This document shows, one piece after another, positions 1,224-62,806 of a DNA stretch of 64,000 bases. Where the stretch lies: IMG/VR virus record IMGVR_UViG_3300025679_000005; one strand, written 5' to 3'. The stretch's first letter is position 1; every line of letters starts with the position of its first letter. The stretch comes from a virus. Taxonomy: Duplodnaviria > Caudoviricetes. The notes below the pieces were generated by a model. The model did no database searches. It was given only the letters and a program-made list of their open reading frames with translations, and was not told the DNA's origin. The translations under genes were made by a program, and so were the position numbers.

Positions 1224-2474
1224 ATGAGAAGCTGTAGCCTCTGCCAACGTCCTGAGAACGAAGTCAAACAGCTAGTCGAGATGACTGGTGGTGCTTGTAT
1301 TTGCAACAGGTGCGTTGCCACAGCCGCTGGTTTGATAGGTGCATCTCCTAAGCAAAAGAAGGAGGAGGATGCTCCTCTGCTCAAGCCCAAAGAGATCCAC
1401 GCTGCCCTAAGTGACTACGTGATAGGGCAGGAACACGCCAAAAAGGATATCTCCGTCGCCATATACAACCACTACAAGCGCCGCGAGGCCTTGAAGCATG
1501 GGATAAACTTCGAGGTTGAGATTCAAAAGAGCAACATCTTGATCTTGGGCCCTACAGGTAGCGGCAAGACCGAGCTGGCGCGGACCATCGCCAAGAAGCT
1601 GAAAGTGCCTTTGTTCGTGGGAGACGCCACAAAGCTGACTTCGTCGGGCTACGTGGGGGATGATGTTGAGTCATTGCTCCAGGGTCTAATGACCACTTGT
1701 GGCAATGACGTGGAAAAGGCTGAATGGGGCATCGTCTTCCTGGACGAGGTGGACAAGATCGCTCGTAAGTCCGGTAAATCAGACTCTGGGTTCCGAGACG
1801 TGTCTGGGGAGGCTGTCCAGCAGGCGCTCCTGAAGATGCTCGAAGGTAACCAGGTCTCTGTTCCCCGAGCGGGCAAGTCAGGTATGGGTGGGGAATACGA
1901 CATCCTCGACACCAGCAACATCCTCTTCATCTGCGCCGGCTCCTTTGCAGGAATCGAAGAATCTGTCAATCGCCGTAAGAACAGCGGGGCATCCCTGGGA
2001 TTTGGTGGCCAATCCAGGACAAAGTTCACGGGAACGGACATCTACATGGCCGTGGAAGAGGACGACATCCTGGACTTCGGGATCATTCCGGAGATGCTGG
2101 GTCGCATTCCCGTGCGAACGACGACTGTACTCCTGACTGAGGACGAGATGGTGCGGATTCTCACAGAGCCTAAGAATGCCCTAATCAAGCAATTCCAGGC
2201 CCTCTTTGAGATGGACGGGATCGACCTGCAATTCGACGAGGAAGCCCTTAAAGCGATTGGCCGGGAAGCTATCAAACGGCCAACGGGGGCTAGAGCCCTA
2301 CGAAGCATTGTCGAACGAATCCTCAAACCTTATGCCTACGACTCTCCCAGCGACCCCTCAATCAAGGGTATCAGGGTCACCAAGGAAGTGGTGGAGGGGA
2401 CGGGAACGGCCGCTATTTTGACGGAATCCTCGGAGCAATCTGAAGTTCTTACGGTATTGACCGCGTCGATTTGA
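1224..2474 (+). CDS. clpX: ATP-dependent Clp protease ATP-binding subunit ClpX
   Basis: N-terminal C4 zinc finger (CSLC...CNRC), Walker A GPTGSGKT, Walker B FLDEVDK, RDVSGEAVQQALLK, LGF loop, TGARALRSI. Confidence 0.95.
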   Translation: MRSCSLCQRPENEVKQLVEMTGGACICNRCVATAAGLIGASPKQKKEEDAPLLKPKEIHAALSDYVIGQEHAKKDISVAIYNHYKRREALKHGINFEVEIQKSNILILGPTGSGKTELARTIAKKLKVPLFVGDATKLTSSGYVGDDVESLLQGLMTTCGNDVEKAEWGIVFLDEVDKIARKSGKSDSGFRDVSGEAVQQALLKMLEGNQVSVPRAGKSGMGGEYDILDTSNILFICAGSFAGIEESVNRRKNSGASLGFGGQSRTKFTGTDIYMAVEEDDILDFGIIPEMLGRIPVRTTTVLLTEDEMVRILTEPKNALIKQFQALFEMDGIDLQFDEEALKAIGREAIKRPTGARALRSIVERILKPYAYDSPSDPSIKGIRVTKEVVEGTGTAAILTESSEQSEVLTVLTASI

Positions 2475-4061: not shown

Positions 4062-4904
4062 GTGAACCTGATCCGCAGCGGTAAAGTCGAGAACCTCCCC
4101 TATTCGTTGTCTAGGTGGACGGATGTCCCTGGAAGTGCGAACAAATGGTCTTGGTTTCTCCAACAGATGAAGCAGGGCTGGATGACAGCCTTCGACCAAC
4201 GCACTTCTATACCCCAGAAGTGGAGTCTCAAGCCTGAGGACACCTTGGGGTTGATGTTCTGGACGAAGAACGCTACCAACCTCCTCAACCATCGGGAGCT
4301 GTTCAAGCCCTACAACGTGAAGGTGCACGTCACTGTCACGGGGTGGGAAGAGGTCGAGAAGGGGGCCCCGGGTATTCTAGAGGGGGCGACCCTTCTTCGG
4401 GATACGGCCCGAGCCTTTGGGCGTGAGAACGTGACCTGGAGATTCTCGCCCGTACCCATCCTGGAGAGTGTGGCCCTGAGGTTCAAGGCCATTGCCTCAG
4501 TGGCAGCTGAGGCCGGCGTACAATCGGCCTACCTGTCGTTCCTACAACCCAATGACTTGGTGCCTGAGACCCGGTCTGAAAGCGATCGTAAAGCCCTCCT
4601 GCATAGCCTATCTGACATTGCCAAGGGCTATGGGATAGAGGTCCGGCTCTGCAATGAGGACTCCCTATTGACGGGGGAGCAGGACTATCCGAACCTGTCC
4701 TCTGGAGTCTGCGCAAAACCAGAGGATTTTGCCCTATCCTCACGGGATATGCCCCCGGCTGAGGGCTGTGGCTGCGTGATGGCTGTGGATCCGTTCACAC
4801 TGAATGAGTCGTGCAACTACGGATGTGCCTACTGTTACGCCTCCGACAAGAGCCTAACACCCAAGAAGCGTAATACTACTCGCAGCCTCCCTGTGGTAAG
4901 ATAG
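4062..4904 (+). CDS. DUF1848-like protein (radical-SAM-related, C-terminal Cys cluster)
   Basis: FWTKN, WRFSPV, C-terminal CGC...SCNYGCAYCYA. Confidence 0.7.
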   Translation: MNLIRSGKVENLPYSLSRWTDVPGSANKWSWFLQQMKQGWMTAFDQRTSIPQKWSLKPEDTLGLMFWTKNATNLLNHRELFKPYNVKVHVTVTGWEEVEKGAPGILEGATLLRDTARAFGRENVTWRFSPVPILESVALRFKAIASVAAEAGVQSAYLSFLQPNDLVPETRSESDRKALLHSLSDIAKGYGIEVRLCNEDSLLTGEQDYPNLSSGVCAKPEDFALSSRDMPPAEGCGCVMAVDPFTLNESCNYGCAYCYASDKSLTPKKRNTTRSLPVVR

Positions 4905-8462: not shown

Positions 8463-9650
8463 TCAACCCCATCCCTAAAGGGCGGAGTTTTGCAGATCAA
8501 GTCCATGGCTCACAACCACTTCAACCCTGTCCGCGTTTGGCCTGATTACGGTGGCCCGGCTAGCAATTACGCTAGCCGCGTTGGCGTCGGCATCCGCGCT
8601 GTGCCCACATGCAAGACAAGCAAACAGATCGCGAGTCTTACGGTTGGCCTTCTCGATATGACCGCAAACGCGGCATTCCCGGGAAGTATTGCGAGGATCG
8701 ACAAAACAGACAGCAACCCCAGCACGCTTGGCTTTGTACCCGATCTTGCTTTGCAAGTCAGCGAAGGCCCAAGAGTGCAGAGAGCGTCGTTGCGACCTGG
8801 AAGCTCGGATCCGGGAGCGGATGCCATCGAGGTTTTCGATGGCTATACCGCGTCCGGTGCGTTCGGCAGCATCGACAATCTGTTTAGAAATAACATGATT
8901 CACATGCGAAGAAAATCGGGATTCTTTGCGACGACGCTTCTTGAGCAGCCGTTTAGCGCTTTTGGTGCCTTTCGTTTGGAGCTTTTTGCGCAACCGGAAT
9001 GCCCGTCCGCGGAGTGCATTAAGGTGTGTTCCGCTGAAATTCTGGCCGTCGCTAGTGGTAGCAATATTCACGATGCCAACGTCTACCCCGAGCCAGCCAA
9101 GCGTCTTATGCTCTTCGGTGTCAGGCACATCGACAGTGACAAACAGGTAGAATTTTCGGTCACGAAGGATGAGATCGGTTTCGCCACGCTCGTACTTGAG
9201 CAAGGCTCGCTGGTGGGTGCCACAAACGAACGGGATACGTTGACGGCCGTTGACTGTCCAGATATTGGTGGAATCTCCCCGCCACGACAGGATCCTAGCA
9301 TCGTACGAGATGGCCCCCAGCGGCCGGAACGTTCGACGACAGATTTTGTCGAGTTTGTAGGAGTCAGCGACCTTGGCGATGCATCGCACGACTACCTGCG
9401 AGGACATTCCTGGAAATTCAGAGCGAGCGTCGTGATAAGCGAGCTTATGGAGGGCGAATTGCCGGAAGATCTGTCCTTCCCAGGCGCGGTCGGAAATCCA
9501 GTTGCAAGCAGCATTAGCTCGACGGATCGTAGCCTCAAGCGCAGCAAATTGCTCAGCCGTCGGCTTGAGCTGAACTTGCACCACGAGCTTCATTTCACAA
9601 TGCTAGCAGTTTCTATACTTGAAGCAAGCCAAGCCGTAACAAGTCTGCGC
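8460..9650 (-). mobile_element. TnpB-only IS200/IS605 (IS1341-like) element; boundaries approximate
   Basis: tnpB with no tnpA; right-end-like hairpin CTCCGCCCTTTAGGGATGGGG immediately after the gene on the minus strand; codon style differs from flanking genes. Confidence 0.7.
8475..9593 (-). CDS. tnpB: RNA-guided endonuclease TnpB (IS200/IS605 family)
   Basis: N-terminal LKPTAEQ helix, RuvC-I LGVDVG, RuvC-II IAIENL, zinc finger CRVC...CLAC, RuvC-III ADANAA. Confidence 0.92.
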   Translation of the reverse strand: MKLVVQVQLKPTAEQFAALEATIRRANAACNWISDRAWEGQIFRQFALHKLAYHDARSEFPGMSSQVVVRCIAKVADSYKLDKICRRTFRPLGAISYDARILSWRGDSTNIWTVNGRQRIPFVCGTHQRALLKYERGETDLILRDRKFYLFVTVDVPDTEEHKTLGWLGVDVGIVNIATTSDGQNFSGTHLNALRGRAFRLRKKLQTKGTKSAKRLLKKRRRKESRFSSHVNHVISKQIVDAAERTGRGIAIENLDGIRSRIRASRSQRRSLHSWAFADLQSKIGYKAKRAGVAVCFVDPRNTSRECRVCGHIEKANRKTRDLFACLACGHSADADANAASVIASRATVIRPNADRVEVVVSHGLDLQNSAL

Positions 9651-14713: not shown

Positions 14714-15721
14714 GTGATGTCGTGCATTTGCCCAAGCTGCGGCTCTGATCTGACCTACGATGACGGTAGGGATGCCTGGACGTGCCTTAGCTGCGGCTTC
14801 TTGGGGCCGAATGACTCTGTGTGCCCCAAGCCTGGGGACGACCAGTCCTATAAATGGACCGGCCCGGATGCTGACGGGTTCTACAGAGTCAACACTGCCG
14901 CCGTTCGTAGGGTCGTGGCCAAGTACAAAGAGAAGAAGAAGAACCCGAATGGCGGCGACCCAATTTACCTCTACTCGGAGGGGGACGTAACCAAGCGAAA
15001 TAAAGCCAAGGCTGAGCGGCTTGAAAAGCTCTCGGGCAACATCGAAAAGCTTCGTACTCAGTACAGGAAAGACCTGAAGTCTGATGACCTAAAGACAGCT
15101 TTGGTTAGCCTGGCCGTCGCCCTCATCGACGAAACGGCGGAACGTGTCGGCGGCGTTGAGAGCACCAAGGGGGACAACGAAGATGGCAAGCCTCATTATG
15201 GTGTGACTACATGGAAGAAGAGTCATGTCCGCTTCAAGGGATCCGGAGCTACCATAGCCTATGTGGGTAAGAGTGGCGTTCCACAGAAAAAGCAAGTGAC
15301 AGACAAGGCTATCGTAACAGCGCTTCGTAAGGCTCATAAAGAATGCTCTGGAGAGGATCTATTCTGTCATGACGAGGTGACCATAGACGCTTCAAAGGTG
15401 AACGCCTACCTCAAGGACCTGGACCTAGGAATCACGGCGAAGGATCTTCGCGGATTTCATGCAAATTTTGCGATGAAGGAAGAACTCAAGAAGGCCCGAG
15501 CCAAGGGCGGCAAGCTTCCCACTGACAAGAAGGAAAGGGAAGACAAACTCAAAAAAGAGTTCAAGTCTTGCTTAGAGATCGTCGCAAAAGAGGTCGGAGG
15601 TCATACCGTTTCGACGCTCCAAAATCAGTACTTAGTCGACTCCATCGAAGAGGATTACCTGAAGGATGGGTCTGTCGGTGCTAAGATGACTGCTTCAGTC
15701 ATGTCTAGGTTCAGGGGTTGA
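14714..15721 (+). CDS. DNA topoisomerase IB (bacterial/poxvirus type); start uncertain
   Basis: Catalytic R-K-R-H-Y residues: ERVG, YVGKSG, TAKDLRG, GGHT...NQYL. Confidence 0.85.
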   Translation: MMSCICPSCGSDLTYDDGRDAWTCLSCGFLGPNDSVCPKPGDDQSYKWTGPDADGFYRVNTAAVRRVVAKYKEKKKNPNGGDPIYLYSEGDVTKRNKAKAERLEKLSGNIEKLRTQYRKDLKSDDLKTALVSLAVALIDETAERVGGVESTKGDNEDGKPHYGVTTWKKSHVRFKGSGATIAYVGKSGVPQKKQVTDKAIVTALRKAHKECSGEDLFCHDEVTIDASKVNAYLKDLDLGITAKDLRGFHANFAMKEELKKARAKGGKLPTDKKEREDKLKKEFKSCLEIVAKEVGGHTVSTLQNQYLVDSIEEDYLKDGSVGAKMTASVMSRFRG

Positions 15722-19783: not shown

Positions 19784-20632
19784 TCATGCCCTGGGTAAAA
19801 GCGACCACGTTTGAGGATTTTCGAGCTGGTGTGAGATCTGAGCGATGTCGGAAAGGCCCGCTAGGTAATCCACCTTCTCGTAGTCGATAGTGCGCTGAAC
19901 CAGAGGACTCAGGGATTCTTGGAAAGGGGTCATGATCGGTACTTTGAGACCGTGGACGAAGTCGTTGAAGGCGGCGTCATGCCAGGGTGGGGACCAGGCA
20001 CTTGACCGACAGATATACACCATCTCGACATTGCCCGCGTATTCCGACACCTTGGGATCAGGCCATACACACGGCTCTGTGTACCGCCTCAGGGAAGCAT
20101 CCAGTTCAGGGAAGCCCCCGTCTCCAAAGCTCCTAGTCCAATCGGCCATCCCCTTCCACGGGGGAAACACGATCAAAGACTTGAGCTGAAGCTGCGTCAG
20201 ATGGGTCATGAGCAGCCAGTTCTCACAGGTGACGTTGCCTCGAAGGGCGTCCCGCTCGAACTGGGCCATGTTGTAGGTCAGGTCGTGGTGAGCGTCAAAG
20301 TTCACCAGCCGGGTGTCAGCTAAGGACGGGCCCTCACAATTCGAACGGGAAAACACCTTGTTCCCGTGCTGATGACTGTCCCCTACAATTACCTCACAGA
20401 GATCATCGAACCGATAGCCCAGACCTCGAAGGGTTTTCCAGAAGTCTCGTGGGTGGGGGTCGTCTAACTTGGCTGACTCTTTGAGGTCGAGCCCCTGTGC
20501 TTTAGCTAAGGCCAGACGAACTTCCCATACAGAGCCGTAGTAGGTTTCAGTTTCTGCGTGAGCCCATTTCCACTCTTCTCGTTCAATAGCGAAGTAGTCC
20601 CAATCTATTGTTAGCCAGATATTTTTTCGCAC
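19784..20632 (-). CDS. UPF0489-like/arginase-fold metal-binding protein (probable start GTG 20632)
   Basis: LTIDWDYF, DSH, NFDAHHD, CENW, ICRSSAWSPPWHD; AAGGAAG upstream of the GTG; the longer ORF call runs through CRISPR repeats. Confidence 0.55.
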   Translation of the reverse strand: MRKNIWLTIDWDYFAIEREEWKWAHAETETYYGSVWEVRLALAKAQGLDLKESAKLDDPHPRDFWKTLRGLGYRFDDLCEVIVGDSHQHGNKVFSRSNCEGPSLADTRLVNFDAHHDLTYNMAQFERDALRGNVTCENWLLMTHLTQLQLKSLIVFPPWKGMADWTRSFGDGGFPELDASLRRYTEPCVWPDPKVSEYAGNVEMVYICRSSAWSPPWHDAAFNDFVHGLKVPIMTPFQESLSPLVQRTIDYEKVDYLAGLSDIAQISHQLENPQTWSLLPRA

Positions 20633-20652
20633 GATACTTCCTTGACGTTGTC

Positions 20653-20843
20653 GTGACCACTTGAAAGGGTTTCGTCTCCCTCTCTGACCCTTTTTGGGTC
20701 CGATTTTGATGGTCATTGGTTCTTACCTGGTGACCACTTGAAAGGGTTTCGTCTCCCTCTCTGACCTGTAAAAACGGGCGGCGTCACCAACACCCAGGTA
20801 TCGGTGGTGACCACTTGAAAGGGTTTCGTCTCCCTCTCTGACC
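20653..20843 (-). CRISPR. Mini CRISPR array: 3 identical 37-nt repeats and 2 unrelated 40-nt spacers
   Basis: Plus-strand repeat GTGACCACTTGAAAGGGTTTCGTCTCCCTCTCTGACC at 20653-20689, 20730-20766 and 20807-20843; spacers at 20690-20729 and 20767-20806; orientation inferred from the effector gene and leader. Confidence 0.9.
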
Positions 20844-21030
20844 TTACCCCTAGGCACCTCAAGCATTTCGCGACCTTGCACAATGCTTTGCGAGAGGTCG
20901 CGAAATCGACCCTTTTTGAGGGAGGGCGATTTGGCAATAAACGCCTGGCTCCATCAACGATGGAGCCTAATTTGGCTGTTGCGAGAGCCTGCTGGCTTTT
21001 TGGCGCCACCGAACCTCTCGCAACGAGGAA
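20844..21030 (-). promoter_or_regulatory. CRISPR leader-like region with several inverted repeats
   Basis: TTTCGCGACCT/AGGTCGCGAAA (11 bp), GGCTCCATC/GATGGAGCC (9 bp), GTTGCGAGAG/CTCTCGCAAC (10 bp). Confidence 0.5.
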
Positions 21031-21034
21031 GACG

Positions 21035-21150
21035 AATTGTCAGAGAACAGAGTGAGAGAAGAAACCCTCTTAAGTGTGGTGGACTCAACCACCAAAGTTG
21101 GGAATACGTAGGTACTCTCACGAGCCCCACTCAGCTAACTTTCGTTAGCT
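21035..21150 (-). ncRNA. Putative tracrRNA/omegaRNA-derived scaffold with anti-repeat; ends uncertain
   Basis: 21039-21076 is complementary (minus strand) to the repeat in blocks of 8/8, 4/5, 8/8 and 6/8 nt; GAAA-tetraloop hairpin at 21133-21150 over the effector stop codon. Confidence 0.65.
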
Positions 21151-23084
21151 GTCGTCCCTAGAGGAGCCACCGACACTGCGCCGCTATCGACACAGCCTTC
21201 CGGTTTGCCTTGCTTACGCTTGGCGCTCTTCCTATTGTGCTCAGGAGCTTTCGCTACTGAGTTTTGGGTCTGCTCTGCCCGAGCAGACCTTTCGGCCCAC
21301 GCTGTTTGGCGTATGGCCAGAAATTCTGGATTGTCAAAGTCCCGGAGATTCATAGCTGCGTTCGCATCTCGATGATTCTCTGGGAGGTGCCCCCTACGAG
21401 GCTCTCGAACGGATCCTACACCGAAGCCGCAGCTCTGGCATCGGAAATATTCGTTAGAACCCAACTTCCTGTTGAGGACCCCGCAGGCATGGCATTGCTG
21501 AGATGTGTATTGAGGCTCCTTGGCGTGGACTACCGCTCCTGCCCAGGTCGCCTTGTAGGTCAATTGCTGGCGAATTGCATAAGGTCCGATCTTGGCCCAC
21601 ATTTTGGCAAAGACCCGTCGCATGCGCTTGGATGCGTTCGAGCCAAGGTCTTGCTTCGCCATCATACCCTTGATGTCCAAGTCCTCGACATGGTAGGTGC
21701 TTGCGCCCTGATCAATCAGGCGTCGAGTGACCTGATGGCGTAGATCCCCCAACAGGTCCGTGATCTTGGAGTCAATGCGTCGGACTTGGCTCTCAACATC
21801 AAGGTAGCCGTTGGAGGGCTTTTGACGGATCGCTTTGCCTTTGGGGTCTAGGCGCACGCTGCCTTGATTGACGAGGACGATACCGTTCTTGTTCGCGGCT
21901 TCGACTGCGACTCGACCTTGTCTTCTGGAGAGTCTCCTCTGGAGGACAGCTTTTTTGCGTTCGAGCTTCTCGACCGTCTTCATAGCCTTCAGGTAGAATT
22001 CCTGAGCATAAATCTTGGCATTGGAGTCAACGACAAATGTCCGTTTGCCCAGGTCGATGCCTAAGGTCTCGCCAGTGCGAGGTTTTGGGTCCGGGGCATC
22101 GATCTCGACTGTCAGAGACAGGTACCAATGAGTCCCTCGTTTTTGGACGGCGACCTGAGTGTGGTTGACGTGATGAACCCCAATAGGGAAATACTTTGGA
22201 CGAGCCAATAGGATCCACTCGTGACCTTTTCCAAAGAACTTGCCAGCTCCTTGGATTTTGATCCGATCTCCCTGTATGGTAACTGTCGTAGACACTCGGA
22301 CAGCACCAGCCTCCGTCGTATAGGCTTCCTCTGGAATTATTGGGAAAGCCGTCACCTTCCCCAATTCCTTGAATGTTGGCTGATTCATCCGGAATTTAGG
22401 AGGGCTCTTCCCAGCCGCCTTGAACTTAGGGTACCCACTAGCTGGAACTCCTGGGGGCGGCTTTACCATGCGATCAAAAGCAAAGTCCACATCCGCGAGT
22501 GCCTCACGACTTACATAGGCAGTAGCTTGGTCCTTCAGGGGCGTTTTGCCGTACAGTGCTTGGGCATTCCTAGGGAATTTGACTATGGGGTCTTCGGCCC
22601 CAGGCTCCCATGCGTCTAGACCTAGGACTCGTGATGCCTGAGGTTGTAACTCCGAAAGATGCGATTCGAGCCATCGAATCGCATTGTTTGGGTTCACACC
22701 CTTGTACTTGTCACCGATCTTTAGGGAACCTTCGATACTGGGGGTTAGAAGGACATCCCCTAGCGGGCCGGAGAACTTCCAACCGCTAGCTTTCTGGCCC
22801 TCTTCTCGGAATTTCTCGTGCGTGTACCCAAGAGCTGTGAACAGAGCTTCGACATCGTAAATGGTTTGAGGGCGCTTGGCCTTTAGCTCTTTTGCGGACA
22901 GGTCCACCCACCCTCGGCGTAGTCCCAGTAGGTAGAGCTGCACCTTGTATGCCTTGTACTCCGCTGTCCTTACTGCGACACCGTGGTTATACGTTCGTCG
23001 AGTGACCCTGCACCAACGAGACAGTTCTTGTTCTTGCCTTGCTGTAGGGTAGATTCGACTTACGTAAGCTTTGTGGATCCTCAT
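21135..23084 (-). CDS. CRISPR-associated enlarged TnpB/Cas12-like (type V) RuvC nuclease, 649 aa
   Basis: TnpB-type N-terminus (YVSRIYPTARQE...RRTYN), RuvC-I LGIDLG, RuvC-II HVEDL, zinc finger CHAC...CQSC, RuvC-III RDANAAMNL; long insertion in the N-terminal lobe; adjacent to anti-repeat and array. Confidence 0.85.
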   Translation of the reverse strand: MRIHKAYVSRIYPTARQEQELSRWCRVTRRTYNHGVAVRTAEYKAYKVQLYLLGLRRGWVDLSAKELKAKRPQTIYDVEALFTALGYTHEKFREEGQKASGWKFSGPLGDVLLTPSIEGSLKIGDKYKGVNPNNAIRWLESHLSELQPQASRVLGLDAWEPGAEDPIVKFPRNAQALYGKTPLKDQATAYVSREALADVDFAFDRMVKPPPGVPASGYPKFKAAGKSPPKFRMNQPTFKELGKVTAFPIIPEEAYTTEAGAVRVSTTVTIQGDRIKIQGAGKFFGKGHEWILLARPKYFPIGVHHVNHTQVAVQKRGTHWYLSLTVEIDAPDPKPRTGETLGIDLGKRTFVVDSNAKIYAQEFYLKAMKTVEKLERKKAVLQRRLSRRQGRVAVEAANKNGIVLVNQGSVRLDPKGKAIRQKPSNGYLDVESQVRRIDSKITDLLGDLRHQVTRRLIDQGASTYHVEDLDIKGMMAKQDLGSNASKRMRRVFAKMWAKIGPYAIRQQLTYKATWAGAVVHAKEPQYTSQQCHACGVLNRKLGSNEYFRCQSCGFGVGSVREPRRGHLPENHRDANAAMNLRDFDNPEFLAIRQTAWAERSARAEQTQNSVAKAPEHNRKSAKRKQGKPEGCVDSGAVSVAPLGTTANES

Positions 23085-23449
23085 GATTTGATTGCTCGCT
23101 CCACTGCATCCAACAAGTCCGATTTGTGGGCTGGTTTGAACAAGACCTTGGCTTCTCCGATGTCTTGCAAAGCCGACATGACGGCTATAGGGGACCCTGT
23201 GTTGAATACGAAGCGCTTAGCCATCTTGGGCTTTGCTTTGATAGCAGCCTGCATGAGGGCGGGGCCGGACAGAACCGGCATCTCGCCGTCAGAGACCACA
23301 CAATCGTAGTCCTTCGCCAGGAGCCCCTTCAGGGCCTTCTCGCTGTCGATGTAGGTGTCCACATCGTAACCCGAAAGACGCAGAGTCCTGGACAGGGCCT
23401 CAGCCACTTCCGGACTGTCGTCTACGACTAGTACCTTTTTCATCGCCAT
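23081..23449 (-). CDS. Stand-alone response-regulator receiver (CheY-like)
   Basis: VLVVDD, VVSDGEMP, NTG, FKP. Confidence 0.88.
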   Translation of the reverse strand: MAMKKVLVVDDSPEVAEALSRTLRLSGYDVDTYIDSEKALKGLLAKDYDCVVSDGEMPVLSGPALMQAAIKAKPKMAKRFVFNTGSPIAVMSALQDIGEAKVLFKPAHKSDLLDAVERAIKS

Positions 23450-24136: not shown

Positions 24137-24378
24137 CTACAGGTCGAAGTCTGACAGGCGTTCCCAAAATGACTTTGAGCCATAGGGATCTCTATCTTGT
24201 TTTTTACGGCAGGCCTGACAGATAGCGCCCGCTACCCTACCGGCTCTGCCAATCTCACTGCACCTAATCGCACAAGGGATCTTCTTCGAGATCGTAATCA
24301 ATTCCGATACAGTCAATGAATTGGGGTCTAGGGTCCTCTCAGTCAGATACCTAGTAACCCATTCCTCTGCTGTCATCG
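24137..24378 (-). CDS. Small hypothetical protein (probable start MTAEEW; start approximate)
   Basis: ATG just after the repeat tract; C-terminal SFWERL motif. Confidence 0.45.
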
Positions 24379-24642
24379 CCGGCTCCGGCTCCCGCTCACG
24401 CTCCGGCTCCCGCTCACGCTCCAGCTCACGCTCCGGCTCACGCTCCGGCTCCGGCTCCCGCTCACGCTCCAGCTCCGGCTCCGGCTCCGGCTCCGGCTCC
24501 CGCTCCGGCTCCAGTTCCAGCTCCAGTTCCCGCTCCGGCTCCCGCTCCGGCTCCCGCTCACGCTCACGCTCCAGCTCCGGCTCCGGCTCCGGCTCCCGCT
24601 CCCGCTCACCAGGTATGCCTCGAACATTAAACAAGGGTTCAT
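24373..24642 (-). CDS. Ser/Gly/Arg low-complexity protein
   Basis: Start overlaps the stop of 24639-24977; stop sits near the next ATG. Confidence 0.45.
   Translation of the reverse strand: MNPCLMFEAYLVSGSGSRSRSRSWSVSVSGSRSGSRSGNWSWNWSRSGSRSRSRSRSWSVSGSRSRSVSRSVSWSVSGSRSVSGSRSRR
24380..24607. repeat. Degenerate hexanucleotide tandem repeat (GGCTCC/CGCTCA/AGCTCC units)
   Basis: About 230 nt of 6-mer units; encodes an SGSRS- or EPERE-type tract depending on frame. Confidence 0.9.
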
Positions 24643-24977
24643 ATCTGCTCCCTAGGCAATTCATGAGGCCATTTCACATGATCCAAAAATGTGCTCCGAT
24701 TGAGGGTTACTTTCACCCCATCTGGGAATGGCTCGACTTCATCGAAGACCCCTGTTTTAAGCAGGTCTGCGAAGCGGCCGTCAGAAGCAATCCAAGCGGC
24801 CTCGTCCAACTCTAACTCTTCTTCGGACACTGCTGTCACTCTACCTGTATAGTGTGCTGTGATAGTTCTAACGAAGATTTTCGTCCCAATTTCAATTGGT
24901 AGTCGACGTGAGGTGTTCATCCCAAATAGTAGGGCTATCTCGCGCAATTGTTCTAAAGTCAGATTTTGAATTTCCAT
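24639..24977 (-). CDS. Phage-type hypothetical protein
   Basis: VRTITAHYTGRV...AAWIASDGRF...EVEPFP; GGTGTA 9 nt upstream. Confidence 0.65.
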   Translation of the reverse strand: MEIQNLTLEQLREIALLFGMNTSRRLPIEIGTKIFVRTITAHYTGRVTAVSEEELELDEAAWIASDGRFADLLKTGVFDEVEPFPDGVKVTLNRSTFLDHVKWPHELPREQI

Positions 24978-25001: not shown

Positions 25002-25214
25002 CTAAGTACAAGAGCAGGTGGTTTCTGGCCCCGGACCTTTGCCGCGATCACTGCAGGCTTCGCGTTTCAGCTCGTAGCACATGTTCCGGCACCCTCCCGG
25101 GTCGATTTGGGAGTGGCAGCGGACCAAGCATTTCGAGCAGGAACTCCTGATGTCAGCCGCCGTTCCTGCTGGCCAGGCGAACCCAACCAGCAGGAATAGG
25201 ATAGCGGCTTTCAT
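25002..25214 (-). CDS. Small secreted Cys-rich protein
   Basis: Signal-peptide-like MKAAILFLLVGFAWPAGTAA followed by 8 Cys. Confidence 0.5.
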   Translation of the reverse strand: MKAAILFLLVGFAWPAGTAADIRSSCSKCLVRCHSQIDPGGCRNMCYELKREACSDRGKGPGPETTCSCT

Positions 25215-26347
25215 AGGACACACTCTTGAGTGAGGGCCTCTTGGAGGGTTTCCGCAGTGATTGCAGGATCCTTGAGGACCATCAGCCGGGCTTTAGCCAC
25301 CGTCTGGGAGATGGCAGGACCGCTCAGCCCTGTATCCTTGATGAATTTCAAGGCGTCGAAGGGCGGTTTCAGGAACTTCAGGTAGTGTGCATCGAGTTCG
25401 GCATCGGAGTGGTGCCAGGAGAATTCCTGGAGCAAGCGGTATTCCTCTTGGCTGAGGGAGTGCCCCACCATCAACGGGCTGGTGAAGTTCATCAGCTTGA
25501 GGAGGGTACTGGTGTCTTTGACCGTGTTGTTGATGCCACGCCTCATTCGACCTTGGGGCACCATCATGAACACGATCTCCAACAAGCCTAGGTGGTGCAT
25601 GGCATCCAGCGCCAGCTCCAATTGGGGCTTGGGTAGGGTCAAGATCTTCTCGATGAAGATCATGGCCACTACCTCGTAGGGCAGACGACGAAGCTCTTCC
25701 GCCTTGCTCTTGAAGGCAAGCCAGGTGTCTGCACTAGGGGTGAGACCGTACTTGGCCCAGAACCGAATGCCACGAAGAATCCTTGAGGGGTCTTCGTCGA
25801 AGGTTTCCTCGGGATGCAAAGGCGTACGCAAGATCTTCTCCTGCAAGTCGTAGAGGCCTTTGCCCAGCAGATCAATGATCGGAGCCGATTCCGGCCCTTC
25901 CACGAGATCACCTAGACGCCACATGAGCGTACCGATTGTAAAATCGCGGCGGCTTAGGTCTTCTAAAAGTGTGCCGACGGCCACTTCCGACGGCTTATGC
26001 CCATCCTTCTTGGACTTGTTGTACTTTTCTTTGCGAGAAGTGACGATCTCGACCTTTTGACCTCGGAGGCTGACCCCTTGGAAGACGATGTCCTCAGCCA
26101 CGGGACCCAGGTGGACGACCCCGTACTGGTCAGGGTGACAGCCAACGTGAAGGCGCTTGGCAACTTCTTCGGCGAGAACCACTGTGGTTCGGCCTTCGGC
26201 GGGTTCCACGACCACATCGAGGTCTTTGACCCCGAAGCCTAGGACGAAGTCTCGAACGGCCCCACCCACGATGTAGCTGTCCCGACCCATGCCTACGGCT
26301 AGGGCTGATTCAGCGAGGAGGCGTAGCATTGCTTCTTCAGGGGTCAT
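25211..26347 (-). CDS. Class II tRNA nucleotidyltransferase (CCA-adding/poly(A) polymerase family)
   Basis: VGGAVRD...KDLDVV, RRDFTI, EDPSRILRGIRF. Confidence 0.9.
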   Translation of the reverse strand: MTPEEAMLRLLAESALAVGMGRDSYIVGGAVRDFVLGFGVKDLDVVVEPAEGRTTVVLAEEVAKRLHVGCHPDQYGVVHLGPVAEDIVFQGVSLRGQKVEIVTSRKEKYNKSKKDGHKPSEVAVGTLLEDLSRRDFTIGTLMWRLGDLVEGPESAPIIDLLGKGLYDLQEKILRTPLHPEETFDEDPSRILRGIRFWAKYGLTPSADTWLAFKSKAEELRRLPYEVVAMIFIEKILTLPKPQLELALDAMHHLGLLEIVFMMVPQGRMRRGINNTVKDTSTLLKLMNFTSPLMVGHSLSQEEYRLLQEFSWHHSDAELDAHYLKFLKPPFDALKFIKDTGLSGPAISQTVAKARLMVLKDPAITAETLQEALTQECVL

Positions 26348-36746: not shown

Positions 36747-38084
36747 ATGACCGAACATTGGGCTGAAGATCTCCAGGCAACGCAGAACGCTCCCGACAAG
36801 CCGGCTCTAACCGATGAGTACAAGGCTGTCGACAAGAACCTGTGGGACATAGTGATGCAGGTTGCCAAGGGGGAACGCCACGACTTTACAAGAGGCGGGC
36901 CAAACGGGGATCGAACCATCAACGCTCCAAATGAAGGTCAGGGGTTCCGTAAGTGGCCCAGTCAGAAGGCAGTGGCATGGGCCATAAAGCAGTACAAGGG
37001 GTTCGGTGGGCAGTGGAAGGGTGACGACGAGAAGAATGCTTCGGAAGACAATGAGTCCTTCGTACAAGCTGTAGCTCTGAGGTATGCGAGCGCAGATGTG
37101 TCACACACTGAGGCAATGCGCCACTACCAACGCAGCGTCCTCGACTTCATGCGGACGGGGTCGTTGATCACAACTGCAACAGGCACAGACGATCACTACT
37201 GGATGCTAGACCTCAGAGACCAAGCCCTGGTCAATCAGGTCCACGCAGCTGAAGGCAGTCACGTCTGGGACATCACTGCCAAGGGTGTTCGTGTGTTCGT
37301 CGCCGGTCTTGAACAGGACCTCGTGCACAAGATGGAACACCTGATCAACACCGAGCCCTACGATGGCAATGAAGCCAAGAAGATCGGTGAGTGGTTTGAA
37401 GCCAACTTCCGTTTCAAGTCTCCGAAGACTCCCAAAGGCCAGAAGGAACTCAAGACAAATTGTGAGCATCTCCATTGGGCTCTAGCGTACGGCAGCACGA
37501 TGTACGCGGGCAGACCGGACGCTTACAAGAGCAATGTCGAGAACCATTGGACATATGTCAAGCTCCACATTGGAGACCTAGTCAAGTACTTCTCTGATGA
37601 GGGCGGGAGGGTAGTCCCCAACGAGCTGAAGATTGGTGCCAATACCTATCTCAACAAGGCAGGACTCGACGAGAAGACGTTGGAGAAATACGCCCATCGA
37701 CTCAACACCGTGATTGAATCCCTTCGAGGATGGCGAGCCAAAGCCCTCAAGGGTGGTGTAAAAGTTATGCTTGTCAGCCCCAGAGACTTGGCGACTGGTG
37801 GCAAGTACAAGACTTCAGAGGACACCTTGATGGTTCGAGCTACGCCGGTCATTTTGAAGCGGGACGCGGGAACGTACGCCAGCTTTGATTATATCGTAGT
37901 CCACGAGCTAGGCCATCGATACGAACATAAGAATTCAGTGCCACAAGACTTCGATAAACCAGAATGGTGGACCTCGAAATACAGCTCCAAGGAGGGCGAA
38001 TCCTTTGCTGAGCTTTTCGCTATTGGTGCCTATAATTTGTCCGGACCTTGGGATCAGCTATTTTGGACCGTTTCGAAAAGATAA
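36747..38084 (+). CDS. Putative zincin metallopeptidase-domain protein
   Basis: VHELGH and SKYS...ESFAELF, the same motif pair as 16786-18435. Confidence 0.6.
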   Translation: MTEHWAEDLQATQNAPDKPALTDEYKAVDKNLWDIVMQVAKGERHDFTRGGPNGDRTINAPNEGQGFRKWPSQKAVAWAIKQYKGFGGQWKGDDEKNASEDNESFVQAVALRYASADVSHTEAMRHYQRSVLDFMRTGSLITTATGTDDHYWMLDLRDQALVNQVHAAEGSHVWDITAKGVRVFVAGLEQDLVHKMEHLINTEPYDGNEAKKIGEWFEANFRFKSPKTPKGQKELKTNCEHLHWALAYGSTMYAGRPDAYKSNVENHWTYVKLHIGDLVKYFSDEGGRVVPNELKIGANTYLNKAGLDEKTLEKYAHRLNTVIESLRGWRAKALKGGVKVMLVSPRDLATGGKYKTSEDTLMVRATPVILKRDAGTYASFDYIVVHELGHRYEHKNSVPQDFDKPEWWTSKYSSKEGESFAELFAIGAYNLSGPWDQLFWTVSKR

Positions 38085-38088
38085 TGGC

Positions 38089-39144
38089 ATGATCCGCTCT
38101 TACCGCTATCCACTGCACCCGCTGAAGGACCAGGAAGTGATCCTGGTCTCCTGGATTGAGAGCTGCCGCCAGCTTTTCAATGGGGCATTGGAAGAGCGGA
38201 AGAGCCACTACTGGAAGTTCAATCGTGGGCTAACTCATTATGAGCAACAGAAGTCGCTGACTATTCTTAGATCTCAGGATTTGGAGTGGAAAGCGATTCC
38301 GGTCATGATTCTTAGATCTGCCCTTAAGCGCTTGGATCATGCCTACAATATGTTTTTCAGGCGAGTGAAGTCTGGAGAAGCCCCAGGCTTTCCACGCTTC
38401 CGGGGTCGTCATCGGTACGACTCTTTCTCGCTGGCGGCATACTTCAAAGTGAGTGAGAAAACCAAAGGGCATTCAGCTACAGTCTCAATCCCGAAGCTTG
38501 GTCCGGTCAAATTCAATCAGTACCGTCCTCACAAGGGTGTGATCAAAGACATCATCGTCAAGCGAGAGGCTGACAGATGGTTTGTGATCTTCCAGTGCGA
38601 TTTGGGAGTAGCCCCTGAGGTCGTGATCGACCCCACGAAGTCCGTCGGCATTGACCTAGGACTCACCCACTTCGGTACCCTTGATGACGGAACAACGATC
38701 GAGAACCCTCGATACTTCCGAGCTGGCCAAGACCTCCTTGCCAAGCGCCAACGCGCCCTGCAACGCAAGCGCCGTGGCAGCCGCTCTCGTCAACGAGCCA
38801 AGATCTTGGTTCAGCGGGCTCACACCCACATCAAGAATCAACGCCTAGATCATGCCAGAAAGCTGGCTAAGTCACTCTTTGAATCGAATGACATTGTCTG
38901 CTACGAGGACCTCTCGATTGCGACAATGATCGAGGGCTCCTACCTAGCGAAATCAATCTCGGACGCTTCCTGGTCAATCACCATTCACTGCCTAAAATGC
39001 AAAGCGGAAGAAGCTGGCAAACTCGCAGTGGCTGTAGACCCAAGAGGGACCACACAGAGGTGTAGTGGGTGCGGAACCGTCGTCCCAAAGGGACTCCGGG
39101 ACCGCGTTCATGACTGCCCAGAGTGTGGCCTCGTCATGGGCTAA
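38089..39144 (+). pseudogene. tnpB: C-terminally truncated TnpB (IS200/IS605 family)
   Basis: YRYPLHP helix, RuvC-I VGIDLG, RuvC-II YEDL, zinc finger CSGC...CPEC; stops at GLVMG before the RuvC-III DxNAA motif. Confidence 0.8.
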
Positions 39145-54576: not shown

Positions 54577-56007
54577 CTAAGCCTGACCCATTGCTGGGTC
54601 TTCGGCGTTTAAGGCTGTGCCAGCATTCCCTGGGGAATTAACTCTGGTAGTAAGCCTACGGCTAGAAGCTGCTAGCACGGTAGCCGACCTTCCTGAGGAA
54701 CTGACCCCGGCCCGAAGGTCTAGGTATCGCTCTCTCAGGATGGTTTTCACTTCGGACGGGGAGTCATCGAGAAGAATGAGGTTGTCCTCAGAACGTCTGA
54801 GCAAATTCTTCCCTCCTACCACATCCGCATGAGAAATCTTACCGCATCCGCGGCATTTGAATTTAGTGCCTGATCGATTACCTCTGTGAACGTAACCACA
54901 AGAAGGACATTCTTGAGAAGAGTAGGCCGGGTTGACAACAATGATCGGTGCCTTGGTCTTCAAGGAGTTGTGAAGAGCCCTGTAAGCGAACCGCTTTTGT
55001 CCACGGCATCCACTGAGATCTAGGTCCTCAATGACGAATGCGTGCCCTGGGTAATCCCGGACAAGTGAGTTGGCAACGAATCCAGTACTGGATTTGATCA
55101 ATCCGCTGAGGCGCTCTTCCAACCGATCCAGACGAGGGGAGTTGAGGCGAAGTCCTTGGCGCTGCCTATTTCCTCGAAGGGTTTTGACCTTGGCATAAAG
55201 GGTATCGAACTTGGGCTTCAGATCAGCTCCGTAAAGCTTGCCGGTCGACGTGGCAGCTATCACGTTGAGACCCACATCCACACCTACCCTTGGGGATGTC
55301 AGGTCAAGCTTAGGGTCCTCGATCAGCTTCCGCTCAAGGACTTCGACACGCCATCGCCCACGTCGATCCTTCCGGATCATACATCCATTGACGATTTCGG
55401 ACGGATCCTTGATGTGAGGGTTGGCTACGATTGGAACCCATAGGCGATGACTCTTCCGTAGATGGGAGATGCCTAGCCACCAAGTAGTCAAGTCCACTTC
55501 AGGAACCACGCGGATGTCACTTGTGTGGATTGACATCCGCATCCCCACTCGATTGGAGATCGTTGGGGTCCTGCCCACTAGGCTCTCGTCAAGAAGGAAC
55601 GACCAGTACTGATCAATGGCTTCTTGGGGAATGGTTTCGCTTGGGCGGTCGACTCCGTACTTGCCGACGGTGAAGAGGGCGATCTGGGTAGCTTCAGTGA
55701 TCTCGCCTTCTTTAGCCAAGTTCTTGATGTGACGTTTGAGCTTCCTGGTGTAAAGGCTAGTAGTCCAACCTGAAACGATTTCAGCGGCGTGCTGCTGACA
55801 AGCCATTACAATGTTGGTGGAAAGTACCTTTTCCTTGGGGAAGAACCGGAGAAGTTCTTTCCTCGAAACGCTCATCCTCATGGATGAGATCATGACCTCG
55901 ACGCAGGCCTGTAGGTACCGAAGGTACTCTACATGAAGGGCTTCGAGAGCACGGATCTTCCCCTCATTGACTTTAGGGTGGAAGTAGAGGGCCCGTGAGC
56001 GTTTCAC
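54577..56007 (-). CDS. tnpB: TnpB-family RNA-guided endonuclease, divergent N-terminus (probable GTG start 56007, ~476 aa)
   Basis: RuvC-I VGVDVG, RuvC-II VIEDL, zinc finger CPSC...CRGC, RuvC-III HADVVG. Confidence 0.82.
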   Translation of the reverse strand: MKRSRALYFHPKVNEGKIRALEALHVEYLRYLQACVEVMISSMRMSVSRKELLRFFPKEKVLSTNIVMACQQHAAEIVSGWTTSLYTRKLKRHIKNLAKEGEITEATQIALFTVGKYGVDRPSETIPQEAIDQYWSFLLDESLVGRTPTISNRVGMRMSIHTSDIRVVPEVDLTTWWLGISHLRKSHRLWVPIVANPHIKDPSEIVNGCMIRKDRRGRWRVEVLERKLIEDPKLDLTSPRVGVDVGLNVIAATSTGKLYGADLKPKFDTLYAKVKTLRGNRQRQGLRLNSPRLDRLEERLSGLIKSSTGFVANSLVRDYPGHAFVIEDLDLSGCRGQKRFAYRALHNSLKTKAPIIVVNPAYSSQECPSCGYVHRGNRSGTKFKCRGCGKISHADVVGGKNLLRRSEDNLILLDDSPSEVKTILRERYLDLRAGVSSSGRSATVLAASSRRLTTRVNSPGNAGTALNAEDPAMGQA

Positions 56008-56091
56008 ACTTAGTGTGGTCGATAAAGGGATTATCGGTGTATAAGCCCACCATGACAGCGCTGCCTTCTTTTTCGGCAGCAAAAGGAACCA

Positions 56092-60645: not shown

Positions 60646-60950
60646 TGAACCCTTACATGGCAATTGCTCTATTGATCTTCGTTGTGTTGGTAGCCTGGCC
60701 GACCAACATGACTCGAGGCGACTCGGTGGTTGGCTCCCTCTTTCTGGCCGTAATCTGGCCCACCCTCTTGATCGTATCAGGCTACCTTTTCATCAAGAAG
60801 TACGTGTTCAAGCGATCCGGACTCAGCGGATCTGAAGTCGGCTCTGAGCTTGAGATTCTAGGGGCTCTGGTAATGACCGGCGGATTACTGTCTCTGAGCT
60901 TAGTCTACCCGCACAACCCCGTCGTAGCTTTCCTAACGAGGCCCTTCTGA
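60645..60950 (+). CDS. Small membrane protein
   Basis: TGATG overlaps on both sides; three hydrophobic segments. Confidence 0.55.
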   Translation: MNPYMAIALLIFVVLVAWPTNMTRGDSVVGSLFLAVIWPTLLIVSGYLFIKKYVFKRSGLSGSEVGSELEILGALVMTGGLLSLSLVYPHNPVVAFLTRPF

Positions 60951-62806
60951 TGGCCCCTTTTGCTTACGATCTCAAGAACGTCCTAGTCTCGATCGACAAC
61001 ATCTCGCTCAAATTCGACGACAAGGTCATCCTCAAGCCGATCACGATGCAGGTCAGGGACATCGTCAGAACAGGGGTCTGCCAGGGACAGGTCATCGGAA
61101 TCCTGGGCCCAAGCGGGATTGGCAAGTGCTTAGCCAAGGGCACCTCGGTACTCATGTTCGACGGCACTCTAAAAAAAGTCGAAGATGTTCGCATTGGGGA
61201 CGCTCTAATGGGACCTGACTCAAAGCCTAGGAACGTGCTAGACTTAGGCCATGGTTACGACCACAACATGTATAGGATTCAACCCACAAAGGGGGAATCC
61301 TTCACTGTCAACTCTCCACACATTCTCGCGCTACACTTGGGTAAAAGCAAGAGAAGCAAAGCCAAGTATGTAGAAGTGTCGGTGGCCGACTACCTGGGAA
61401 AGAGCCGTACCTTCAAGGCCAGGACCCGCCTGTATCGCGTGGGTATAGACTTCCCAGAACAAGAAGTCCCTGTTGATCCTTATTTTTTTGGCCTGTGGCT
61501 AGGAGATGGAAGTTCTGACAGCACTGCCATTACTAATCAGGACCCAGAAGTCTTTGAAGCCGTTGAAGCGTTCGCGCTAGCCGTAGGGGCTGAGTCTCAC
61601 AGGGTTGACCCGAAAAACAGGTGCTCACGGATCTCGGTTCACAACAATTACAGTAAGAAGCCTGGGACTGTACTCAAAGCATTAAGACTGACAGGTGCCT
61701 TGAACAACAAGCATGTCCCTTTGAAGTACAAGGCTAACAGTCGTGATGTGCGCCTTCAACTGTTAGCTGGAATCATCGATAGCGATGGGGGTATCGCTGG
61801 TGCCAATTGTTACGAGGTGTCTTCCAAGCACAAGCATCTGGCAGACGACTACTGCTATATAGCTAGGTCCTTAGGCCTTGCCGCTTACTGCAAGTCAGCC
61901 TTCAAGAAATGCCAAACTGGCAAGGGTGGTATCTACCATCGCGTTACTATTTCCGGACATGTGGACGAGATCCCTGTAAGGATTGCCCGTAAAATCGCGA
62001 AGCCTCGTAAGCAGATCAAGGATGTATTGCGAACAGGCTTTACTGTCCACAACGAGTGGTATGGGGAGTATTTTGGATTTGAACTGGACGGTGATGGATT
62101 GTTTCTATTGAGCGACTTCACTGTAACTCACAATACACAATTCAGCAGGATCCTCGCAGGTCTTCAAAAACCGACCACAGGCGCGGTCACTGTCGAAGTG
62201 GACCTTCCAGGTGGCGGGGTCGCCCAAAAGACCGTAGGAGCCGGCCTCGTGGGCATGGTGGCCCAAGACTACCCTCTGTTCAAACACAGGACAATCGAGG
62301 GCAACCTCCTAGTAGCCCTCGAGCATACCAAAGCCTCGAAGAAGGACCGCCTGCTCAAAGTCTACGAGTACCTGAACAGGTTTGGCCTAGCCGACAAGGC
62401 TCGTCTCTACCCTGCTCAGCTCTCAGGTGGCCAAAAGCAGCGGGTGAGCATCATCCAAGAGCTTCTTTCCTCCGAGCACTTCCTGATCATGGACGAGCCT
62501 TTCACTGGGCTTGACCCGATCAACAAGGACTTGGCTTGTGAACTCATCCTTCAGGTCTCGCACCTGGACGAAAAGAACACCCTGTTCATCGTCGCCCACG
62601 ACATTGCATCCCTCGTGACCGTATCCGACCAGCTCTGGCTCTTTGGCCGAGACAGGGACGCAGCGGGTAACCCCGTCCCAGGCGCTTACATCAAAAAGCA
62701 GTACAACCTGGTGGACCTGGGGTTTGCCTGGCATGAGGGGATCAGCGCTACCCGCGAGTTCTCCGAGTTCTGCAACGCCGTCAAAGAAGAATTCCGATTC
62801 CTGTGA
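60950..62806 (+). CDS. ABC transporter ATP-binding protein interrupted by an intein
   Basis: Walker A GPSGIGK|T split by the intein; signature LSGGQKQR; Walker B IMDEPF; switch VAHD. Confidence 0.9.
   Translation: MAPFAYDLKNVLVSIDNISLKFDDKVILKPITMQVRDIVRTGVCQGQVIGILGPSGIGKCLAKGTSVLMFDGTLKKVEDVRIGDALMGPDSKPRNVLDLGHGYDHNMYRIQPTKGESFTVNSPHILALHLGKSKRSKAKYVEVSVADYLGKSRTFKARTRLYRVGIDFPEQEVPVDPYFFGLWLGDGSSDSTAITNQDPEVFEAVEAFALAVGAESHRVDPKNRCSRISVHNNYSKKPGTVLKALRLTGALNNKHVPLKYKANSRDVRLQLLAGIIDSDGGIAGANCYEVSSKHKHLADDYCYIARSLGLAAYCKSAFKKCQTGKGGIYHRVTISGHVDEIPVRIARKIAKPRKQIKDVLRTGFTVHNEWYGEYFGFELDGDGLFLLSDFTVTHNTQFSRILAGLQKPTTGAVTVEVDLPGGGVAQKTVGAGLVGMVAQDYPLFKHRTIEGNLLVALEHTKASKKDRLLKVYEYLNRFGLADKARLYPAQLSGGQKQRVSIIQELLSSEHFLIMDEPFTGLDPINKDLACELILQVSHLDEKNTLFIVAHDIASLVTVSDQLWLFGRDRDAAGNPVPGAYIKKQYNLVDLGFAWHEGISATREFSEFCNAVKEEFRFL
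61127..62134 (+). mobile_element. Intein with LAGLIDADG homing endonuclease (336 aa)
   Basis: Begins CLAKGT and ends VTHN followed by Thr; internal GLWLGDG and LAGIIDSDG. Confidence 0.92.

Follow-up and report, generated by a model that had tools for sequence, protein, structure and literature searches.

A TnpB-family effector with an enlarged recognition lobe, a predicted guide-RNA scaffold and a three-repeat array in a huge-phage-like contig

The virus record IMGVR_UViG_3300025679_000005 (Duplodnaviria; Caudoviricetes), analysed here over a stretch of 64,000 nucleotides (the window), carries on its minus strand a gene for a 649-residue RuvC effector of the TnpB/Cas12 family (21135-23084, assigned by Pfam and NCBIfam profiles), followed by a structured non-coding region and a short array of exact repeats. 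To judge from its motifs, the protein is a nuclease of the TnpB/Cas12 superfamily, with a split RuvC D-E-D triad, a TNB zinc finger and an N-terminal half composed of WED and recognition (REC) domains. The reading favoured here is that it is probably an immobilised, TnpB-derived type V CRISPR effector of the grade represented by V-U, TranC and Cas12n systems, forming a small lineage of its own. An initial annotation had described the effector as domesticated and expanded in its REC lobe. This description is supported by the lack of room for a transposon left end, the lack of a tnpA gene nearby, the single copy in the window and the singleton cluster formed by the protein at 90% identity.

The 37-nt repeat is present in three exact copies with a period of 77 nt (repeat 1, 20807-20843; repeat 2, 20730-20766; repeat 3, the terminal one, 20653-20689; all on the minus strand), of which none is expected in shuffled sequence, and the array begins 291 nt past the effector stop codon. 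Read in the minus sense the repeat ends in GTCAC, as had been annotated, and it does so in all three copies. The two 40-nt spacers (spacer 1, 20767-20806; spacer 2, 20690-20729; minus strand) are unrelated to the other spacers, with 6-12 of 40 positions identical in pairwise comparison, which is the random level, and they have no other match within the window. Neither the core of the repeat nor a 30-nt core of spacer 1 has an exact match in IMG/VR. A TnpB-family RuvC effector is hence found beside an array of identical repeats with unique spacers, the arrangement by which type V CRISPR loci are recognised. The flank after repeat 3, at the position of a third spacer (20613-20652, minus strand), contains an AAGGAAG ribosome-binding site, and the true downstream gene probably starts behind it, at GTG 20632. 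Two open reading frames (ORFs) called on the minus strand, 20713-21009 (98 aa) and 19784-20716 (310 aa), read through the repeats and were rejected as called, being artefacts or over-extended. Such mechanical ORFs across 19784-21009 (minus strand) yield the repeated peptide GQRGRRNPFKWS, and a gene caller could mask the array in this way.

The 291 nt of non-coding DNA between the effector stop codon and repeat 1 form the greater part of a putative RNA scaffold (20844-21160, minus strand), which is contiguous with repeat 1 and appears tracrRNA-like (trans-activating CRISPR RNA-like) and derived from an omega-RNA. Its predicted fold has a minimum free energy of -135.7 kcal/mol, compared with -98.9 +/- 5.4 kcal/mol in shuffles (z-score -6.8). 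The effector stop codon lies within the first hairpin (21132-21151), a central hairpin is found at about 20978-21024, and an anti-repeat (21039-21076, minus strand) is complementary to almost all of the repeat, with a 7-nt bulge in the duplex. The duplex of anti-repeat and repeat is predicted at -41.2 kcal/mol versus -26.8 +/- 3.0 kcal/mol with shuffled repeats. When scaffold and repeat 1 are folded jointly, a long-range anti-repeat helix of 21 + 8 bp closes a multi-hairpin domain. An anti-repeat complementary to the repeat and near the effector gene, the hallmark of tracrRNA-dependent type V systems, is present at the sequence level, and no Rfam family matches the scaffold.

A metagenome scan gave one useful locus for comparison, an AT-rich contig of 5.3 kb (WNGH01026830.1, here L014) that encodes a 599-aa ortholog with 41% identity, alike in its insertion and catalytic motifs. 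It carries a structured non-coding RNA of roughly 420 nt (4281-4702, plus strand), in which the central GC-rich hairpin of the window's scaffold and the anti-repeat helix are both kept. Only one repeat-like segment (4666-4702) is present; its last letters are ATCAC, and the next small ORF starts immediately after it. No array is found in the remaining 650 nt. The L014 anti-repeat pairs with this segment at -41.8 kcal/mol versus -20.4 +/- 3.8 kcal/mol in shuffles. When the anti-repeat helices of the window and L014 are registered from their common ...TCAC end, the 16 pairs display six compensatory and three one-sided changes, and an A.C mismatch is shared by the two. Because of these compensatory changes the scaffold is considered a conserved functional RNA. 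The layout in L014 is contiguous and omega-RNA-like, whereas the window has an array.

The start of the effector gene bears on its mobility. Positions 23084-23081 of the minus strand, read directly from the sequence, are ATGA, in which ATG is codon 1 of the effector and TGA the stop codon of a co-oriented ORF directly upstream. This ORF (23081-23449, minus strand) encodes a single-domain CheY-like receiver of 122 aa (Pfam Response_reg, 6.2e-16, model positions 1-111 of 111). The effector start is taken as the true one because the Pfam domain HTH_OrfB_IS605, the N-terminal motif of TnpB, aligns from residue 1 (residues 1-46 on model positions 1-45). With the ATG overlapping the receiver stop, and zero bases between the genes, there is therefore no room for an IS200/IS605 left end, in agreement with what had been pointed out in the initial annotation. 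Profile searches found no tnpA, Cas1, Cas2 or Cas4 among the ORFs neighbouring the effector, and no tnpA is seen near the L014 ortholog. Neither the effector gene nor the repeat has a second copy elsewhere in the 64 kb, and the 90%-identity cluster of the effector has one member, found on two contigs. The marks of an OMEGA TnpB, namely a left end upstream together with TnpA and/or multiple near-identical copies, are accordingly missing from this locus.

The catalytic residues are intact. Asp344 in a GIDLG motif (22053-22055), Glu467 in VEDLD (21684-21686) and Asp573 in HRDANAA (21366-21368; all minus strand) are invariant in two family alignments (A1 and A2), and Asp344 and Glu467 are at least 90% conserved in a wider alignment (A3) of 137 sequences, composed of the effector and 136 representatives from an exhaustive HMMER search of 1.8 billion protein representatives. 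The CCCC zinc finger of the TNB domain (C531, C534, C549 and C552; 21429-21494, minus strand) was identified by alignment conservation and the Cas12f1-like_TNB profile. Across A3 no exception occurs at C534 and C552, and conservation reaches at least 90% at C531 and C549; in A1 and A2 the invariant positions are C534, C549 and C552, with C531 at least 90% conserved in A1. Pfam recognises OrfB_IS605 and the Cas12f1-like_TNB zinc ribbon (6.6e-15) in addition to the N-terminal HTH_OrfB_IS605 domain. Among NCBIfam models, guided_TnpB is passed with 175 bits (cutoff 100), whereas IS200_TnpB (92.8 bits, cutoff 425), IS607_TnpB (84.7 bits, cutoff 350) and V-U2 (C2c8; 52.2 bits, cutoff 350) are not reached, and the effector also falls below the Cas12f2 cutoff of 450.

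The most prominent departure from a canonical TnpB is an insertion of residues 48-174 (22563-22943, minus strand). The match to guided_TnpB breaks after residue 46 and resumes at residue 169, which is model position 47, and residues 48-174 have less than 20% occupancy among the 127 canonical TnpB representatives in A3 (median 426 aa). The three further TnpB-like ORFs in the window, 8475-9593 (minus strand, 372 aa), 38005-39144 (plus strand, 379 aa) and 54577-56082 (minus strand, 501 aa), are each less than 25% identical to the effector and all lack the stretch. The recognition-lobe insertion noted in the initial annotation, absent from the window's other TnpBs, is thus real, and its size has to be corrected from some 130-150 aa to about 120-127 aa. 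A lack of conservation or a disordered insertion had been named as outcomes that would contradict the annotation, and neither was found: the insertion is kept with common motifs in all seven close relatives, and a fold is predicted for it. An AlphaFold 2 (AF2) model built with an alignment, which replaced a single-sequence model with a predicted local distance difference test (pLDDT) of 36.6, has a mean pLDDT of 84.6 and a predicted template modelling score of 0.80. In this model the insertion is an alpha/beta module of helices (64-70 and 75-84), strands (88-93, 100-106 and 109-113) and further helices (132-154), in which pLDDT by ten-residue block is mostly 80-96, with lower values in blocks 111-120 and 121-130 (72 and 57). 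The overall layout appears to be a WED strand (2-12), REC (15-207), a WED barrel (about 217-330), RuvC/TNB (340-585), a C-terminal helix (586-611) and a tail (612-649) that is predicted disordered with pLDDT below 50. The insertion is placed within the REC lobe because it follows the long first REC helix (15-56) and comes before the helix (189-207) that leads into the WED barrel. Smaller family-specific insertions comprise residues 238-263, 394-417 and 555-568, and the C-terminus is extended. Pfam gives no match with the insertion alone or with the C-terminal tail, and a weak structural resemblance of the insertion to HicA/dsRBD-like folds (Atlas, template modelling scores 0.38/0.59) is a lead only.

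The family to which the effector belongs is rare. A word-indexed homolog search retrieved distant TnpBs only, with at most 31% identity, and the family surfaced only by the exhaustive HMMER search, in which just seven close relatives were found (P0012-P0018; 591-683 aa, 28-48% identity). At 50% identity the family thereby amounts to eight representatives, the effector included, among 1.8 billion proteins. These eight are monophyletic in a FastTree tree (SH-like support 96) and are nested in a larger clade of enlarged proteins of 490-648 aa. In IMG/VR the best segments related to the effector are at or below 35% identity, P0018 has no relative there, and P0012 has none in GTDB genomes. For neither the 282-aa protein encoded downstream of the effector nor the RNase HII encoded upstream was a relative found in IMG/VR; a search of INPHARED with the 282-aa protein was likewise negative, and megablast of 15 kb against phages gave no match. 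No related phage contig turned up in the scan of IMG/VR, INPHARED and GTDB.

Structure search and family profile place solved TnpBs nearer to the effector than any solved Cas12, including RdCas12n and LaTranC. Among profiles of CRISPR effectors, V-U4/Cas12n appears to be the closest (PADLOC Cas12u4, 2.2e-38, near full length), though RdCas12n scores below the TnpBs. The effector is about 240 residues longer than the TnpBs of ISDra2 and ISFba1 (IS200/IS605-family OMEGA; PDB 8exa, 8h1j and 8iaz), with residues 48-174 as an extra in REC, the three smaller insertions in WED, RuvC and TNB, respectively, and the C-terminal tail. Unlike these TnpBs it has neither left end nor tnpA, and a three-repeat array with distinct spacers takes the place of one flank-encoded guide. 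Cas12n cleaves double-stranded DNA as a monomer and uses an A-rich 5'-AAN protospacer-adjacent motif (PAM). The effector resembles Cas12n (V-N; RdCas12n, PDB 9j09) in its size class (400-700 aa), in the equivalent positions of its REC and WED expansions, in a disordered C-terminal tail, in an RNA scaffold that touches the end of the ORF and in the absence of adaptation genes. Cas12n itself has been characterised as an intermediate still resembling TnpB, in which REC and WED are expanded, the C-terminus is disordered and the tracrRNA overlaps the ORF (PMC12216341). In contrast to Cas12n, the REC insertion is predicted with a beta-sheet module and not with helices only, the anti-repeat is located 5' of several hairpins, and the locus is found in a huge-phage-like contig and not in a bacterial genome.

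Similarity is also evident to TranC, reportedly described by Jin and colleagues in Cell in 2025. As in TranC (LaTranC, PDB 9jfo/9jfq), an effector of TnpB lineage stands beside a short array with a putative tracrRNA derived from a right-end RNA, so that the operational features of TranC are present, and LaTranC, the only solved TranC, is distant. The contiguous RNA of scaffold and repeat 1 may, as in TranC, serve as a single guide beside crRNAs (CRISPR RNAs). The repeat length of 37 nt and the repeat number of three are both in the ranges given for TranC clades, which are 32-38 nt and 3-20 repeats per array (bioRxiv 10.64898/2026.03.27.714800). TranC are presented as transposon-CRISPR intermediates made by RNA splitting, some of them in phages (bioRxiv 10.64898/2026.03.27.714800; PMC13565253, citing Jin et al. 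2025). With the phage-encoded compact type V systems CasPhi/Cas12j, CasLambda/Cas12l and the Cas12p 'hacker' the locus has in common a single RuvC effector, a mini-array, the absence of cas1/cas2 and a phage genome, and the presumed role of all these, competition with other elements, would be common as well.

A different placement of the effector would be within subtype V-N itself (Cas12n, formerly V-U4/C2c9), without a separate lineage. The top PADLOC match is Cas12u4, aligned over residues 3-624 and model positions 25-471 of 488, and no solved Cas12 scores higher with the family profile than RdCas12n (1.6e-21). The REC extension, WED expansion, disordered tail and guide-RNA structure reaching into the ORF end are as published for Cas12n (PMC12216341). 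The effector's neighbours in the tree are not Cas12n, and none of the comparisons allowed it to be assigned to a named subtype. We regard true V-N membership as unlikely. Even less probable is that the protein is still an OMEGA TnpB of transposon type. The 'array' would then be a right end duplicated in tandem together with the flanks it captured, and the RNA, an ordinary omega-RNA, would help to retain the transposon or to let it home from one phage genome into another. The passing of guided_TnpB and the best structural matches, which are TnpBs, would agree with this, as would the contiguous L014 scaffold with one repeat-like segment followed at once by flank, and the ...TCAC junction of scaffold and guide kept in both loci. 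It is opposed by the zero bases separating the upstream gene from the effector start codon, by the missing tnpA in both the window and L014, and by the single-copy gene with its singleton cluster. Repeats that are 100% identical, separated by 40-nt spacers at the random level of similarity, moreover argue against duplication followed by drift.

It is highly improbable that the effector is a non-cutting RNA-guided binder or repressor of a phage gene, similar to Cas12m or TldR and acting, for example, by a terminal guide over the downstream ribosome-binding site and start codon. This idea draws on the overlap of the flank after repeat 3 with the probable ribosome-binding site and GTG start of the next ORF, and on the operon-like cluster with a receiver domain. 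Every array has a non-spacer flank past its last repeat, so this overlap needs no special explanation, and the family shows no variation at D344, E467 and D573, unlike nuclease-dead TldRs or Cas12m. A nuclease-dead repressor was rejected on account of the intact RuvC triad.

Several observations weigh against an immobilised type V effector as favoured here. By curated NCBIfam thresholds the protein belongs to the 'TnpB family' and reaches none of the named Cas12 models. The array has three repeats only and is without nearby adaptation genes, no protospacer was found in the window or, for the spacer 1 core, in IMG/VR, so that interference is a prediction. The only ortholog locus read, L014, is without an array, and an association with CRISPR may therefore be no trait of the family. 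The scaffold and guide transcripts are predictions from sequence and fold. Finally, the phage identity of the contig, which is reported at 465,854 bp, is based on gene content, and no structural gene is seen in the window.

If the effector is a TnpB-derived type V nuclease, its gene would share a transcript with the genes for the receiver and RNase HII upstream, and the scaffold RNA would begin near the end of the effector ORF. The anti-repeat could then pair in cis with repeat 1, so that scaffold and guide form one natural single-guide RNA, or in trans, like a tracrRNA, with repeat-spacer units released by processing. The resulting ribonucleoprotein would cut double-stranded DNA matching the spacer beside a PAM. 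In line with proposals for other huge-phage CRISPR systems, its likely targets would be host DNA or rival mobile elements. The most likely effect of the enlarged REC lobe would be additional contacts with the displaced strand or with the guide-target duplex, suited to long guides of 40 nt; REC expansions in Cas12n and Cas12m have been described in these terms.

The effector is situated in a cluster of genes. Upstream on the same strand are the receiver, RNase HII and several small ORFs, and downstream are the 282-aa ORF, of no recognised family, and a Dam methylase. The stand-alone receiver (23081-23449, minus strand), which was called translationally coupled to the effector from the ATGA overlap, gives only weak PADLOC matches (SduA and PD-T4-6 regions, E about 1e-4). 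Phage operon control of the effector, as suggested in the initial annotation, is not substantiated: the overlap and the co-orientation are its sole basis, and the receiver gene is absent beside the L014 ortholog. The cluster also includes a 175-aa ORF (24137-24664, minus strand), adjacent to RNase HII on its upstream side, in which a tandem DNA repeat (6/42 nt, 24379-24609) gives rise to a long run of Glu-Pro-Glu-Arg units. Genes typical of very large phages are those for a eukaryotic-type topoisomerase IB (14714-15721, plus strand), an enzyme of the CCA-adding/poly(A) polymerase family (25211-26347, minus strand) and a ClpX-like ATPase (1224-2474, plus strand). An intein containing Hint and LAGLIDADG homing-endonuclease domains splits a gene for an ABC-type ATPase (60950-62806, plus strand).

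Cas12 effectors have arisen from TnpB about 50 independent times, with accretion in REC as a common trend, and CRISPR arrays are thought to stem from duplicated omega-RNA segments (PMC10691335). The lineage described here adds a rare case to this already described kind of TnpB-to-Cas12 transition and is not a new concept. The evolutionary intermediate proposed in the initial annotation is consistent with a protein that carries an array and whose nearest solved structures are TnpBs, not Cas12 enzymes. This combination is a known category, already described for TranC and Cas12n, and the intermediate status is unproven. It is possible, and put forward only tentatively, that one family holds both states of the transition on one scaffold, L014 with a single guide and the phage copy with its 3' segment multiplied into an array. 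The enlarged REC lobe is present in the L014 ortholog and in the phage effector alike; if the two-state reading is true, domain accretion therefore preceded the birth of the array, which arose inside a phage genome. For CauTranC9 the published view is reportedly the reverse order, with RNA splitting before domain expansion.

Compact tracrRNA-guided nucleases near TnpB are sought after, both as candidates for small genome-editing tools and because they document how CRISPR effectors arose from transposons. This locus offers a complete TnpB core, a new REC module that is predicted to be folded and a well-defined guide-RNA scaffold. The pair formed by the window and L014 makes it testable whether one protein uses both contiguous and split guides, and the locus also permits the contribution of the REC module to be tested.

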